NCBI RefSeq assembly: GCF_050920415.1
Contig: NZ_CP169309.1
Strand: one strand, 5' to 3'
Origin: Escherichia coli
Lineage (GTDB): Bacteria > Pseudomonadota > Gammaproteobacteria > Enterobacterales > Enterobacteriaceae
Length of the DNA: 64,000 nt
Positions within the stretch are counted from its first letter, which is position 1, and every line of letters begins with the position of its first letter. The notes under the pieces are model-generated. The model did not search any database. It saw only the letters and a list, made by a program, of their open reading frames with translations, and was not told the origin of the DNA. Positions 2,228 through 57,886 of this stretch are shown here, piece after piece. The translations under genes were made by a program, and so were the position numbers.

Positions 2228-3541
2228 TTATTGATCCGCAGTTTTATCAAATTTGCCCAGCACTTCGCGCTCATAAGCCAGCGCTTTCTTACGGTCAAAT
2301 TTGTGTTCCCACTTGGCAATCACCAGCACCGCCAGCGCATTACCCACCACGTTCAGCGCAGTACGCGCCATGTCGAGGATACGGTCAACACCGGCAATAA
2401 ACGCCAGACCTTCCAGCGGGATCCCTACGCTGCCCAGCGTTGCCAGCAACACCACAAACGACACGCCCGGCACGCCAGCAATCCCTTTCGAGGTCACCAT
2501 CAGCGTCAGCACCAGAATGATTTCCTGCCAGATGGACAGGTCAATGCCATACAACTGCGCGATGAAAATAGCGGCAATACTTTGATACAGCGTCGAACCA
2601 TCAAGGTTAAAAGAGTAACCGGTCGGCACCACGAAACTGGTGATCGACGCCGGTGCACCATAGGCTTCCATCTTCTCAATAATTCGCGGCAGCACGCTTT
2701 CAGAGCTGGCAGTGGAGTACGCCAGAATCAGCTCATCTTTCAGAATACGAATCAGGATCCAGACGCTTAACCCGCACAGGCGCGCCACAATTCCCAGCAC
2801 TACCAGCGCGAAAAACAGAATGGCGAAATGCACCAGCAGCACCAGTTTCGCCAGTGGCCACAGAGACGAGAAACCAAAGTTAGCCACCGTCACCGCAATC
2901 AGCGCAAACACACCCACTGGCGCATAACGCATCACCATGTGAGTCACTTTAAACATGGTTTCAGAGATGGAGCGGAACACGGTCACCAGCGGTTCACGAT
3001 GCGTTGCGGGCAGGGAGGAAAGCCCCAGACCAAACAGTACCGAGAAGAAGATGATCGGTAACATTTCGCCTTTCGCCATCGACGCCACAATATTCGTCGG
3101 CACCAGAGACAAAATCGTGCCCATAATACCGTGGGAACTGCTCTGTACCGCTTCTGTAGTGCTCTGATATTTCGAGATATCGACGGTTGCCAGCTGCGAC
3201 ATATCCACCCCGGCACCGGGCTGGAAGACGTTCGCCAGGGTGATCCCCAGAATGATGGCGACAGTGGTGATCACCTCGAAATAGATAATGGTTTTCGCGC
3301 CAATACGCCCGAGCTGTTTGGCATCACCAACACCCGCAATACCCACCACCAGCGTGGAGATCACAATCGGCACAACAATCATTTTGATCAGATGGATGAA
3401 GATATCACCCGCCGGAGAGAGCAAATTGACGACCAGCCATTCGCGACTGTCGCTATGGTAGTGCAGGTAGCTTCCCAGGAGAATGCCCAGCACCATAGCA
3501 AACAGAATCTGCCAGGCCAGGCTGAATTTTATATTTTTCAT
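2228..3541 (-). CDS. gltP: Glutamate/aspartate:proton symporter
   Basis: 437-aa product starting MKNIKFSLAWQILF; ATG at 3539-3541 preceded by GAGGAA RBS; the longer 478-aa ORF in the track is an upstream in-frame extension. Confidence 0.93.
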   Translation of the reverse strand: MKNIKFSLAWQILFAMVLGILLGSYLHYHSDSREWLVVNLLSPAGDIFIHLIKMIVVPIVISTLVVGIAGVGDAKQLGRIGAKTIIYFEVITTVAIILGITLANVFQPGAGVDMSQLATVDISKYQSTTEAVQSSSHGIMGTILSLVPTNIVASMAKGEMLPIIFFSVLFGLGLSSLPATHREPLVTVFRSISETMFKVTHMVMRYAPVGVFALIAVTVANFGFSSLWPLAKLVLLVHFAILFFALVVLGIVARLCGLSVWILIRILKDELILAYSTASSESVLPRIIEKMEAYGAPASITSFVVPTGYSFNLDGSTLYQSIAAIFIAQLYGIDLSIWQEIILVLTLMVTSKGIAGVPGVSFVVLLATLGSVGIPLEGLAFIAGVDRILDMARTALNVVGNALAVLVIAKWEHKFDRKKALAYEREVLGKFDKTADQ

Positions 3542-24179: not shown

Positions 24180-27002
24180 ATGGATAAGATCGAAGTTCGG
24201 GGCGCCCGCACCCATAATCTCAAAAACATCAACCTCGTTATCCCCCGCGACAAGCTCATTGTCGTGACCGGGCTTTCGGGTTCTGGCAAATCCTCGCTCG
24301 CTTTCGACACCTTATATGCCGAAGGGCAGCGCCGTTACGTTGAATCCCTTTCCGCCTACGCGCGGCAGTTTCTGTCACTGATGGAAAAGCCGGACGTCGA
24401 CCATATTGAGGGGCTTTCTCCTGCCATCTCAATTGAGCAGAAATCGACGTCTCACAACCCGCGTTCTACGGTGGGGACAATCACCGAAATCCACGACTAT
24501 TTGCGTTTGTTGTTCGCCCGCGTCGGCGAGCCGCGCTGTCCGGACCACGACGTCCCGCTGGCGGCGCAAACCGTCAGCCAGATGGTGGATAACGTGCTGT
24601 CGCAGCCGGAAGGTAAACGCCTGATGCTGCTCGCGCCAATCATTAAAGAGCGCAAAGGCGAACACACCAAAACGCTGGAAAATCTGGCAAGCCAGGGTTA
24701 CATCCGTGCTCGTATTGATGGCGAAGTCTGCGATCTTTCCGATCCGCCGAAACTGGAACTGCAAAAGAAACATACCATTGAAGTGGTGGTTGATCGCTTC
24801 AAGGTGCGTGACGATCTCACCCAACGTCTGGCAGAGTCGTTTGAAACCGCGCTGGAGCTTTCCGGTGGTACCGCGGTAGTTGCCGATATGGACGATCCAA
24901 AAGCGGAAGAGCTGCTATTTTCCGCCAACTTCGCTTGTCCAATTTGCGGCTACAGTATGCGTGAACTGGAACCACGCCTGTTTTCGTTTAACAACCCGGC
25001 GGGGGCCTGCCCGACCTGTGACGGCCTTGGCGTACAGCAATATTTCGATCCTGATCGCGTGATCCAAAACCCGGAACTGTCGCTGGCTGGCGGTGCGATC
25101 CGTGGCTGGGATCGCCGCAACTTCTATTATTTCCAGATGCTGAAATCGCTGGCAGATCACTATAAGTTCGACGTCGAAGCGCCGTGGGGCAGCCTGAGCG
25201 CGAACGTGCATAAAGTGGTGTTGTACGGTTCTGGCAAAGAAAACATTGAATTCAAATACATGAACGATCGTGGCGATACCTCCATTCGTCGTCATCCGTT
25301 CGAAGGCGTGCTGCACAATATGGAGCGCCGTTATAAAGAGACGGAATCCAGTGCGGTACGCGAAGAATTAGCCAAGTTTATCAGCAATCGCCCGTGCGCC
25401 AGCTGCGAAGGAACGCGTCTGCGTCGGGAAGCGCGCCATGTGTATGTCGAGAATACGCCGCTGCCTGCTATCTCCGACATGAGCATCGGTCATGCGATGG
25501 AATTCTTCAACAATCTCAAACTCGCAGGTCAACGAGCGAAGATTGCGGAAAAAATTCTTAAGGAGATTGGCGATCGCCTGAAATTCCTCGTTAACGTCGG
25601 CCTGAATTACCTGACACTTTCCCGCTCGGCAGAAACGCTTTCTGGCGGTGAAGCCCAGCGTATCCGTCTGGCGAGCCAGATTGGTGCGGGCCTGGTTGGC
25701 GTTATGTACGTGCTCGATGAGCCGTCTATCGGCCTGCACCAGCGCGATAACGAGCGCCTGCTGGGTACGCTTATCCATCTGCGCGATCTCGGTAATACCG
25801 TGATTGTGGTGGAGCACGACGAAGACGCGATTCGCGCCGCTGACCATGTGATCGACATTGGCCCGGGCGCAGGTGTACACGGCGGTGAAGTAGTCGCGGA
25901 AGGTCCCCTGGAAGCGATTATGGCGGTGCCTGAGTCGTTAACCGGGCAGTACATGAGCGGCAAACGCAAGATTGAAGTGCCGAAGAAACGCGTTCCGGCG
26001 AATCCGGAAAAAGTGCTGAAGCTGACAGGCGCACGTGGTAATAACCTGAAAGACGTGACGCTGACGCTGCCAGTCGGTCTGTTTACCTGCATCACAGGGG
26101 TTTCAGGTTCCGGTAAATCGACGCTGATTAACGACACACTGTTCCCGATTGCCCAACGCCAGTTGAATGGTGCGACCATCGCCGAACCGGCACCTTATCG
26201 CGATATTCAGGGGCTGGAGCATTTCGATAAAGTGATCGATATCGACCAAAGCCCAATTGGTCGTACTCCGCGTTCTAACCCGGCGACCTATACCGGCGTG
26301 TTTACGCCTGTGCGCGAACTGTTTGCGGGCGTACCGGAATCCCGTGCGCGCGGTTATACACCAGGACGATTCAGCTTTAACGTTCGCGGCGGACGCTGCG
26401 AAGCCTGTCAGGGCGATGGCGTGATCAAAGTGGAGATGCACTTCCTACCGGACATTTACGTACCGTGCGACCAGTGCAAAGGTAAACGCTATAACCGTGA
26501 AACGCTGGAGATTAAGTACAAAGGCAAAACCATCCACGAAGTGCTGGATATGACCATCGAAGAGGCGCGTGAGTTCTTTGATGCGGTACCAGCTCTGGCA
26601 CGTAAGCTGCAAACATTGATGGACGTTGGCCTGACGTATATTCGTCTGGGTCAGTCCGCAACCACGCTTTCTGGTGGTGAAGCCCAGCGCGTGAAGCTGG
26701 CGCGTGAGTTGTCAAAACGCGGCACCGGGCAGACGCTGTATATTCTCGACGAGCCGACCACCGGTCTGCACTTCGCCGATATTCAGCAACTGCTCGACGT
26801 ACTGCATAAACTGCGCGATCAGGGCAATACCATCGTGGTGATTGAGCACAATCTCGACGTGATCAAAACCGCTGACTGGATTGTCGACCTGGGGCCGGAA
26901 GGCGGCAGTGGCGGCGGCGAGATCCTCGTCTCCGGTACACCAGAAACCGTCGCGGAGTGCGAAGCATCACACACGGCACGCTTCCTTAAGCCGATGCTGT
27001 AA
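24180..27002 (+). CDS. uvrA: Excinuclease ABC subunit A
   Basis: 940-aa ORF; two ABC ATPase modules with Walker A ([18 protein letters not shown]) and zinc-finger CxxC pairs. Confidence 0.97.
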
Positions 27003-34072: not shown

Positions 34073-34198
34073 TAGTTCGGCTGTATGTAGGGTACAGCAC
34101 GATGAATCTGTTAGAGGCGCAATAGTGACAGATTTGATTATCAATTCCTATTTTGTTCTAAGGATAAAACCTTAGGTTGTGATCGTCCGCACAATCCC

Positions 34199-34441
34199 TT
34201 AGTAACGCCAACGGTCATAGCGCTGATATTTCGGCACTTTTGGTGCTTTAATCGCCTTAATAACCCACACCACCGCAATCGCCAATAACAGCCACGGCAG
34301 CAACTTAATCATCAATGCCAGCATACCGCCGAGGAACATAATGGCCGTCGCCACAACCAGCGCAGCGATAATACCCAGCAACGAAACGCCGGTGACCATC
34401 AGCATGACAAAAAAGCCAATCACAAAAAGTAGTTCCAGCAT
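34199..34441 (-). CDS. pspG: Phage shock protein G
   Basis: 80-aa two-helix membrane product starting MLELLFVIGFFVMLMV; the 150-aa track ORF is an upstream extension through the promoter. Confidence 0.88.
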   Translation of the reverse strand: MLELLFVIGFFVMLMVTGVSLLGIIAALVVATAIMFLGGMLALMIKLLPWLLLAIAVVWVIKAIKAPKVPKYQRYDRWRY

Positions 34442-34478
34442 GATGCTCTCCCAAATATGAAATCTCTTGCTGGCATTA

Positions 34479-34494
34479 CAAGAATCATGCCAAA
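34479..34494 (-). promoter_or_regulatory. Sigma54 (-24/-12) promoter of pspG
   Basis: Minus-strand TGGCATGATTCTTGTA (GG and TTGT at canonical spacing) about 40 bp upstream of pspG ATG; IHF-like AATCAATAGATTA just upstream (34498-34511). Confidence 0.65.
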
Positions 34495-34574
34495 AATAAT
34501 CTATTGATTTAACAGCAAAACGCCCCGCGACGGTGCGCAGGGCGTGATGAATTTGACTACTTTTTGGTGAAAAG

Positions 34575-35567
34575 TTAACGCTTATCTGCCACCAGTTTGA
34601 GCGCGTGTTCCAGCACGTTAATGTCAGCACCCGCTTTATGGGCATTTTCACTTAAATAACGCCGCCACTGCCGCGCGCCAGGAATACCCTGGAACAGCCC
34701 CAGCATATGCCGGGTAATATGGCCGAGATACGTCCCCTGGCTGAGTTCACGCTCAATGTACGGATACATGGCACGCACCACCGCCACCGGATCGGCATCG
34801 GTATCCGAGGAACCAAAAATCTCTCGGTCTACCGCCGCCAGAATACCCGGATTCTGATACGCCTCGCGCCCTACCATCACGCCATCCATATGTTGCAAAT
34901 GCGCTTTAGCCTCTTCCAGCGACTTGATACCACCGTTAATCGACATCGTCAGATGCGGAAAGTCACGCTTCAGTTGATACACACGCGGATAATCGAGCGG
35001 CGGGATTTCACGGTTTTCTTTCGGGCTTAACCCAGAAAGCCAGGCTTTACGTGCGTGGATGATGAACATCTCACACTCGCCTTTGCCGGAAACGGTGTTG
35101 ATGAAATCGCAGAGAAATTCATAGCTGTCCTGGTCATCGATGCCAATACGCGTTTTCACCGTCACCGGAATCGATACGACATCGCGCATCGCTTTCACGC
35201 AGTCGGCAACCAGCTGCGCATTGCCCATCAGGCACGCACCAAACATGCCGTTCTGTACCCGGTCAGACGGGCAGCCGACATTCAGGTTGATCTCATCATA
35301 TCCGCGCGTTTCTGCCAGCTTCGCACACTGCGCCAGCGCCGCCGGATCGCTACCGCCCAGTTGCAACGCTACCGGATGTTCTTCTTCACTGTACGCCAGG
35401 TAATCACCTTTACCGTGAATAATCGCCCCTGTGGTCACCATTTCTGTATACAGCAACGTATTGCGGGAAAGCAGACGCAGGAAATAACGGCAGTGTCTGT
35501 CCGTCCAGTCGAGCATTGGTGCAACGCTAAACCGACCACTCCAGTGAACGTCAGTTTTTTCAGGCAT
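34575..35567 (-). CDS. dusA: tRNA-dihydrouridine synthase A
   Basis: Product from [29 protein letters not shown] (330 aa); in-frame ATGs up to 35618 are alternative starts. Confidence 0.9.
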
Positions 35568-35972
35568 TGCGCTGGTTTGGTTGATTTTTTGCATTTCAGA
35601 ATTACCGTGCATTTTCAAATGTAGAGATTATTTTAACGATATATCATGGAGTTATGTTATTCAGCATCACTGTTCAGGAGGCTCAATAGCGGGGTACTAT
35701 ACCATAACAACAGGAAGCGCCTGGCTCTTTGAAAAAGAAAAATGAGATTCCTTCAAAGCGTGACGCTCTCGCGAATTGAAGAAATAATCTTATTAGATGT
35801 TAGCGTGTGAAAAGCAATGATAAACAATTCAGTTTCGACGATAAATAAAAAATCACACATAAAACCGTGTTGAACTATCTCGCGGCGAATGGCATTGATA
35901 GATAAAAAAGAACCCAAGCAATGTTGGGTTCTTTTATGTAAAAAATCCCATACTACAGAGAAAATTCACATT

Positions 35973-55789: not shown

Positions 55790-57886
55790 TTAGCGGAAAT
55801 TGACGCTTCGGTCGCTGGTCATGTCATACAACTGGAACTTACGCCCAAGTTGCTGACCACCGTCACGCGTCAGCGGCGTCCAGCCAATTGCCGCTCGGCT
55901 ACGAGTCGGGCCAGACGAGAAGAGATCCAACGGTACAGAGATATACACGCCTTTGGTGAAGTCCCCTTCGCCGTACTCCTCTTTCGAAACATTCGTGATC
56001 GTGGCATACCCACCCACTACCACGCCGCTGTCAAAGCGTTTGGCGATTTCCAGCGTGCCGCCTTTATCCCCTGCCAGATATTGCCCGACGCTGGCTTTCA
56101 CTAACACATCCTGAGCGAAAGATGGCGTCCAGTAGGCGGTCAAATGACCAGTTTTCACGCTGTAATCGGTGAATTTCATCATATCTTTCGCGCTACGCCA
56201 GTCGCGCTGTTTAACGTAGTTAGCATCCAGACCAAACGCCCAGTTGCTATCCAGCGGGCGATACAACACCTCTGCCCCCGCGCCGCCAAACATGGTTTCG
56301 AGATAACCACCGTAGACCTGACCGTAGAAGCCGTTGCCCAGATGCTGGAAATAGTTGGCTTGCAGGTTATTCACATAGACATCATTCTGCACATACTCAC
56401 GCACATGGGTACGAACGCGCGGTAAGTGCGAGTCCTGCGGTGGATTGGTGTAATTAAACTTGTCGTAATTGTTCGCCAGGTTAGCAAACAGGCTACCGGT
56501 GGTCAGCAGATGGTCCGTCAGCCACAAATCCGCCGTTCCCATCACGCCCAACTGGTACATGTAAAAGTTTTCCGGGCCCCCGACCGACTGGTTCAGCACC
56601 GGATCGATATGGAAATCAAAGCGTGATTTGTCGATATACCAGCCCTGCTCGGTGGACGCAGGAACTACCGGCTCGACGCGTTTTTGCGCCAGCGTCGTTT
56701 CGTGGCCCAACGGCTCTCCGGCAAGATGATTTTTCAGGCTGGCGACATCCGTTTCCGTCGTCACCTGCGGCATGTTAAGGCGATTTTCTGTAACGCGGAT
56801 CGTCTTGATCCCCTCCGGCAGATCGTTCATCACGATCCGATTAGCACGGATGATCCCTTCACGCGAATCACGATATTTCACCTGCTCACCGGTGACGTAC
56901 AGCGTATCGCCTTTCGTCTGGATCTGCGGATCGGCCAGTCCGGCGTTGTATTTCAACAGCGTTAACTGATTCGCCACCACCGAATGCTGCAAAATGGCAT
57001 CCTGTGGTTGCGGTTGATATTGCGGACGGGCGTTATCATTGTAGGACGGGCGTAGATCGTTAAAGTTGGTACGCAGCGTGACGCCAAACATAAAGGTGTT
57101 ACCGCGTTCATAGCTAAGGTTAACGTCGGCCCAATCGGTAACGCGATAAATCGCCCCGACGTTAAACTTACTTTTTTGCTCCAGCTTCCCGGCAAAATCC
57201 TGCTGATAATTATTGCCTTCATACTCCAGTTTCAGACGCAGCGGCTGCCAGGACGTCTGGTATTCCACGCCGCCAAACAGTGAGGCCGGACCGTGGAACA
57301 TCTGGCTGCCGTCGATAGATCCCGCTTGTTTGTAGCTGTTATCGCGATAGCAATATTTGTCACTGGCTGAACAGAGCGGATTTTTCACGTTACCGCTGGT
57401 GCCCAGATATCCCCAGCCCAGGCCGAGCGTAAAATCGAATGGCCCCCAGGCTTTGCTGGCGACAAGATATTCCGCATCGAACAGCCCCGTACCGCCGATA
57501 TCCCGCGCACCAACCGCCACCTGTGGCAGCCAGTAACTCTCTTCCCATAAACGCAGTTTGAGATCGAAGGCTTTATCTTTATACGTTTGATCACCAGAGA
57601 ACGCTTCGACGCTGCTGTACTGCCGAGTGCGCACGTCGGTATAACGCAGCGTTGTTTCCAGCCACGGGAAGAGTTGCACTGAAGCTGAGTAATAACGGTA
57701 CTGATCGTTATCGCGATAGTTCAGACTCAACTCCCCTTCCCGCGCCATGCGCGCGGTAGGTGTTTGTAATAATCCTACACCACCGAAATCCGATTGCGAC
57801 GGACCAATGGGCGCAGGATATGTTTCGCCGTAGCAAGCTGTGCTAATGCCCAGCGCCAGTAAGCTAAGCAGATGTCTTTTTTTCAT
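55790..57886 (-). CDS. yjbH: Outer-membrane lipoprotein YjbH (GfcD-like)
   Basis: 698-aa ORF; lipoprotein signal LALGISTAC; C-terminal aromatic residue typical of beta-barrels; start abuts yjbG stop. Confidence 0.9.

Follow-up and report, generated by a model that had tools for sequence, protein, structure and literature searches.

The dusA and pspG genes follow each other on the minus strand of the window, the 64-kb stretch of Escherichia coli DNA that was analysed as a whole (Table 1). The dusA stop codon is a TAA at 34577-34575 and the ATG of pspG lies at 34441, which leaves a spacer of 133 bp (34442-34574) between the two genes. Both gene names were taken from the RefSeq annotation of near-identical E. 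coli DNA, where qorA and dnaB are the neighbouring genes, and the dusA start coordinate was deduced from the annotated gene length of 1038 nt. The 80-amino acid product of the downstream reading frame, which ends at 34199, matches PspG proteins carrying the Pfam family PF09583 (Phageshock_PspG). In a megablast search of 5,426 complete E. coli genomes, a single one gave no match to the region, which is annotated as dusA and pspG. Within the species the regulatory spacer is far better conserved than the coding flanks: the 601-nt stretch 34150-34750 shows about 97% identity to most E. coli genomes and reaches at least 99% in only 7 records, and a 111-nt part of the spacer is at least 99% identical in 3,507-3,508 E. 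coli records.

Table 1. Genes and regulatory features of the dusA-pspG region, with positions in the window.
Feature	Position	Strand	Basis or remarks
dusA, tRNA dihydrouridine synthase A, coding sequence	34575..35612	-	open reading frame list and RefSeq annotation of near-identical E. coli DNA
Conserved block CTTTTCACCAAAAA, consensus TTTC-R-C-Y-AAAA	34561..34574	-	conservation in 80 sequences
Putative PspF upstream activating sequence (UAS), single full site	34545..34562	.	pspA-derived matrix, conservation, literature count
Predicted intrinsic dusA terminator	34510..34545	-	10-bp G+C-rich stem-loop (34545..34520), then tail TTTGCTGTTA
Predicted IHF core AATCAATAGATTA	34497..34509	-	about -31 to -43; perfect match to WATCAANNNNTTR
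Sigma-54 promoter TGGCATGATTCTTGTA	34492..34477	-	sole exact match in the window, identity to K-12 ChIP-seq site, conservation
Predicted 25-nt 5' untranslated leader, including ribosome-binding site GGGAGAG at 34452..34446	34442..34466	-	inferred start
pspG, 80-aa integral membrane Psp effector, coding sequence	34199..34441	-	open reading frame, PspG-named homologues, PF09583, RefSeq annotation

The promoter element reads TGGCAT-GATTC-TTGTA. Its GG (34491-34490) occupies -25/-24 and its GT (34479-34478) occupies -13/-12, exactly 10 bp apart within the TGGCAC-N5-TTGCW pattern, and GT is also the -12 dinucleotide of pspA. Counted back from the ATG, the first T of the element is at 51 nt and its last base at 35 nt, on the strand of pspG. 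The original prediction had placed a -24/-12 type element on the minus strand, about 40 bp upstream of pspG and in a 133-bp spacer after dusA; the spacer coordinates and the strand hold, and the distance was a fair estimate. Motifs by themselves are weak evidence, as the degenerate -24/-12 pattern has one match in the 64-kb window with 0.44 expected from shuffled sequences, at least one match occurs in 36 of 100 shuffles and, with one mismatch allowed, the window holds 8 matches versus 10.9 expected, so that the count alone is not significant. The case for a promoter rests on placement, conservation and published data. Elsewhere in the window, a sigma-54-like sequence with one mismatch to the search pattern, TGGCACGTAAGCTGCA (26596-26611, plus strand), lies within a 940-aa plus-strand open reading frame (24180..27002) and could be one of the intragenic sigma-54 sites of E. 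coli.

For the analysis of conservation one genome per species was taken, which gave 80 Enterobacteriaceae loci, 79 of them usable; with the window, these made a set of 80 sequences. The -24/-12 element is exact in 76 of the 80 and carries a single mismatch in the other four, and its variation is concentrated in the five non-contact spacer bases. Departures at contact positions are TGTCA for TGGCA in Citrobacter werkmanii (L035), TGGCG in L053 and TTGA for TTGT in L037 and L082, single-base changes that may weaken or silence pspG induction in those genomes. Transcription is predicted to start at about 34466, judging from the position of the -12 element and the distance of 25 given for K-12 in PMC4591121. 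In the resulting leader the ribosome-binding site is conserved across the 80 sequences, but from the promoter up to that site neither sequence nor length is constant, the distance from TGGCA to the pspG ATG ranging from 48 to 85 nt. Two subspecies of Salmonella enterica, arizonae and diarizonae (L022 and L047), have a pspG leader about 33 nt longer, with 84-85 nt between TGGCA and the ATG, and this longer leader holds a G+C-rich palindrome, GCCCGGTAAGCGC..GCCGGGC, which resembles an inserted REP-type element.

According to the literature, pspG is no longer induced when rpoN or pspF is mutated, and Lloyd and co-workers (2004) reportedly found yjbO/pspG to be transcribed by sigma-54 RNA polymerase, with PspF and IHF as activators and PspA as a negative regulator. 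In E. coli K-12, a sigma-54 ChIP-seq site flagged as confirmed, OS40, was assigned to pspG (yjbO) with the sequence TTGGCATGATTCTTGTA at 25 nt from the gene; in the same study pspG went up on sigma-54 overexpression, and its regulation by PspF was cited from earlier work (Bonocora et al. 2015, PMC4591121). The -24/-12 element of the window is identical to that site, and K-12 has the same gene order, dusA-pspG-qorA-dnaB. In Salmonella Typhimurium, a 39-fold sigma-54 enrichment was obtained by ChIP-chip at the pspG (STM4244) site, whose near-identical sequence, TGGCATGATTTTTGTAAG, occupies the orthologous position and differs in one spacer base (Samuels et al. 2013, PMC3844500). Additionally, the pspG promoter has been used in vitro, and its -12 and -24 elements are common to pspA (PMC4641871). 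The original reading of this element as a sigma-54 promoter for pspG matches these ChIP-seq and ChIP-chip data as well as the strong conservation.

An IHF-like site just upstream of the promoter had also been predicted, and AATCAATAGATTA is indeed a perfect match to the consensus WATCAANNNNTTR four bases upstream of TGGCA, where the A/T-rich 5' flank looked for beside such a core is a T-rich stretch, TTTTGCTGTTA. The IHF pattern has 9 matches in the window versus 2.6 expected. Among the 80 sequences the core is present with at most one mismatch in 65, its four middle bases varying freely, and it lies 4-5 bp from TGGCA in 78. This is unusually near the -24 element (4 bp in the window), and the IHF footprint might abut the polymerase; the layout of pspA is the same, with 6 bp from the IHF core to TGGCA in 9/9 sequences.

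Further upstream, a putative binding site for PspF was located with an 18-nt weight matrix made from 18 pspA enhancer sites of nine genera (L002, which is K-12, and L083-L090), from which pspG sequences were excluded. With this pspA-derived matrix, 34545-34562 ranks first among 127,966 window positions with 20.1 bits, and only 3 positions in the window reach 15 bits. Genuine pspA UAS I sites score 16-25 bits, and the UAS I of K-12 scores 15.5 bits with K-12 left out of the matrix. The same offset gives the top match in essentially all of the 80 sequences (median 15-16 bits, in either orientation). The putative site holds the quasi-palindromic core GTCAAATTCAT (34557..34547, minus strand), has its centre near -86 relative to the predicted start and lies wholly within the spacer; spanning about -79 to -96, with the IHF site between it and the promoter, it falls in the range of about 80-130 bp upstream of the start in which a PspF site was looked for. 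With a 36-nt matrix covering both pspA sites the pspG region again came out on top, this time in the opposite orientation, and the site, being quasi-palindromic, does not reveal which way it faces. The second-best match to the pspA-derived matrix, TGATGAAATTCACCGATT at 56164-56184 (19.95 bits), lies inside a 698-aa minus-strand open reading frame (55790..57886) with no sigma-54 motif nearby and was set aside as probably due to chance.

A second, tandem site of the pspA kind was not found in pspG, the position 20 bp distal to the putative enhancer scoring a median of -5 to -8 bits. Two tandem UAS are a trait of pspA and are not required for PspF control. PspF binds the enhancers of both pspA and pspG (Mehta et al. 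2013, PMC3709507, citing Lloyd et al. 2004 for binding to the pspG UAS), and the same paper gives two UAS and 100-fold induction for pspA, and one UAS and 20-fold induction for pspG, a count with which our single predicted site agrees.

The last base of the enhancer core, at 34547, is a T on the minus strand (A on the plus strand), where C is found in at least 90% of the Enterobacteriaceae sequences that were aligned. Across the 111-nt regulatory region this C-to-T change is the sole difference between the window and the common E. coli allele, which includes a K-12-like strain; two records with at least 99% identity that were checked, SK1144 and the K-12-like HE_100, differ at this base only, and 100% identity over the 111 nt was found in just one of the 5,426 complete E. 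coli genomes (NZ_CP169399.1). Judged from these genomes, the change appears nearly private to the strain. With the matrix, T scores 20.1 versus 20.0 bits for C in one orientation and 12.4 versus 17.5 bits in the other.

The spacer holds another well conserved element next to the dusA stop codon. Conservation of the sequence TTTCACCAAAAA (34572..34561) is roughly on a par with that of the enhancer, at 80-99% for most positions of the block in the 80 sequences, and in every locus only 1-3 nt separate it from the stop codon. Between the CAC of the block and the CAY of the main enhancer core (CAT in the window and CAC in the consensus) there are 20 bp, or two helical turns, a spacing equal to that of the two pspA sites, and the matching left half of a site placed there would be the dusA stop codon itself. 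As a full PspF site the block was rejected by the pspA-derived matrix, the low median scores at the distal position being those of the block. A small A/U stem predicted by folding at 34575..34559 was likewise rejected as a conserved RNA structure, as it came without covariation, and a scan of 34100-34900 against Rfam gave nothing at E <= 1.

Between the enhancer and the IHF site lies the hairpin of a predicted terminator, picked up by a scan for such structures. It starts 30 nt past the dusA stop codon, its first two bases being the last two of the conserved CACCAC, has 10 pairs, 8 of them G-C, and is followed by a U-run in the transcript; its folding energy is -22.1 kcal/mol (z = -2.9). Compensatory changes have kept the stem paired across 79 sequences, with 96.8% of cells paired and 9 of the 10 pairs changed on both sides, while none of 500 shuffles reached as high a value and slid controls were 36-60% paired. 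Because this covariation exceeds both the shuffled and the slid controls, the hairpin can be taken as a real RNA helix, and it is best read as the terminator of dusA.

Read from dusA to pspG, the alignment runs through the post-stop block, the conserved GTCAAATTCACCAC, the hairpin with its stems kept and its loop free, the T-run, ATCAA-N4-TTA, the promoter, the variable leader and the conserved ribosome-binding site, so that conserved and free blocks alternate. From the centre of the pspG enhancer to the centre of the IHF site the distance is 49 bp in 70 of the 80 sequences and 49-50 bp in 77, and from the dusA stop codon to TGGCA it is 80-84 bp across loci (about 82 bp in the window). The spacing upstream of the promoter is thus almost invariant across the Enterobacteriaceae, and that of the leader downstream is not. 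In the comparison with the pspA promoter for which the prediction had called, E. coli pspA has the same -12 variant, TTGTA, an IHF core immediately upstream of TGGCA as in pspG, and the same type of enhancer core (RTG-N5-CRC within GTTAGT..ATTCACCAC). The two promoters differ in the distance from enhancer to IHF site, since UAS I and the IHF site of pspA are 60 bp apart from centre to centre in 9/9 sequences, 11 bp more than in pspG. This difference is about one helical turn and would be consistent with the same need for a given face of the helix in IHF-assisted looping. They also differ in that the full sites of pspA are two, centred at about -99 and -119 with 20 bp between them, and are shared with the divergent pspF promoter, whereas pspG has one full site at about -86 plus the non-matching conserved block, and carries the terminator of a co-oriented upstream gene inside the loop.

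All these data lead us to read the spacer, with a probability of roughly 0.93, as the already characterised, stress-inducible promoter region of pspG, sigma-54-, PspF- and IHF-dependent and part of the PspF (phage shock) regulon, in which a single stretch of 133 bp packs five functions: a stop codon, an enhancer, a terminator, an IHF site and a sigma-54 promoter. On this reading, which makes the region an ordinary and already known one, sigma-54 RNA polymerase would wait on the -24/-12 element as a closed complex and PspF would bind its one quasi-palindromic site near -86. IHF, at 34509..34497, would bend the intervening DNA so that PspF could touch the polymerase and open the promoter with ATP, and transcription would then start about 25 nt upstream of the pspG ATG. 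PspA holds PspF inactive until the inner membrane is under stress, and the dusA terminator would end dusA transcripts and shield pspG from read-through.

One alternative goes back to the original prediction, namely that the spacer is too short for the PspF sites and that the enhancer or, in a variant of this idea, a second site comparable to UAS II of pspA extends into the 3' end of dusA. With just 82 bp between the stop codon and TGGCA, sites placed as those of pspA would fall at or beyond the stop codon in pspG, and the conserved block is found next to the stop codon with its CAC at the spacing of a second pspA site. However, these 82 bp are enough for one enhancer site, and the best match to the matrix stops 12 bp short of the stop codon. 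Nothing in 34563-34760, which includes the dusA 3' end, scores above 2.5 bits with the pspA-derived matrix, and the last dusA codons show as much synonymous variation as codons further upstream, the diversity of the last five being normal (e.g. four Ala codons, with an entropy of 1.9 bits). Given a best site within the spacer, low scores in the dusA 3' end and normal synonymous variation, there is no need for the enhancer to overlap dusA and apparently it does not do so, and with one UAS reported for pspG (PMC3709507) we consider an overlap decidedly unlikely. The block itself is possibly a PspF half-site or a bending tract, and a tentative suggestion, to which we give a limited chance of being right, is that it forms a functional part of the enhancer, as a degenerate second half-site or a bending tract that sets occupancy, perhaps together with the fixed-length terminator DNA as a dual-use spacer. 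If so, pspG would have more than "one UAS" and the left edge of its enhancer would use the dusA stop codon; the actual PspF footprint could reach the stop codon itself.

It is also conceivable that pspG is expressed mainly by read-through from dusA or from a sigma-70 promoter, the -24/-12 match being incidental, since the number of sigma-54 motifs in the window is not above chance by itself and dusA and pspG are co-oriented, their adjacency being kept even where PspG is only 39% identical. Nevertheless, the strongly covarying terminator stands between the two genes, a search of 34100-34900 gave no sigma-70-like promoter on the pspG strand, the -24/-12 element is kept across genera and the adjoining leader is not, and sigma-54 binds at this promoter in vivo in both E. 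coli (PMC4591121) and Salmonella (PMC3844500), which together make this the least probable of the alternatives and an extremely unlikely one. With regard to the hairpin at 34545..34520, its location inside the loop region and its almost invariant length and position, reflected in the 49 bp between enhancer and IHF site, would also fit a DNA spacer or structural element for looping, or else an RNA element acting on pspG. The compensatory changes keep the pairing and not the sequence, which speaks for an RNA helix, a T-run after a G+C-rich stem some 30 nt past a stop codon is the textbook layout of a terminator, and the hairpin lies upstream of the pspG start and is therefore absent from the pspG mRNA; a main role other than termination thus seems unlikely. 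The terminator and spacer roles of the hairpin are nevertheless not mutually exclusive.

Within the two-promoter PspF regulon the pspG promoter is a textbook case, and its version in the window is almost unchanged; beyond annotation our results have little significance. What the comparative analysis adds is a base-level map of five functions in 133 bp, which could guide the design of compact sigma-54 expression cassettes, together with some minor new details, namely the covarying terminator, the near-invariant spacing, the block TTTCACCAAAAA and the base change at 34547. Two small points that invite testing also come out of it, namely what the distal conserved block does and what the private base change means for the enhancer.

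Lastly, more distant relatives of PspG were looked up. Two of the four look-ups led to short, Enterobacter-like contigs with the same layout. On a metagenome contig coding for a PspG with 39% identity (L094:1303-1500), a gene of the Dus family still adjoins pspG, with a spacer of 198 bp that holds a strong terminator, AAAGCGTAATCTT..AAGGTTACGCTTTTTTT, and, at about 45 nt from the ATG on its upstream side, a sigma-54-like sequence, TGGCTTACTTTGTGCA. The layout of this one locus at such low PspG identity suggests, in qualitative terms, that the order of enhancer, terminator and promoter may be old. The palindrome TAACCAT-N6-ATGGTTA, which lies upstream of its terminator, might represent a different PspF site.
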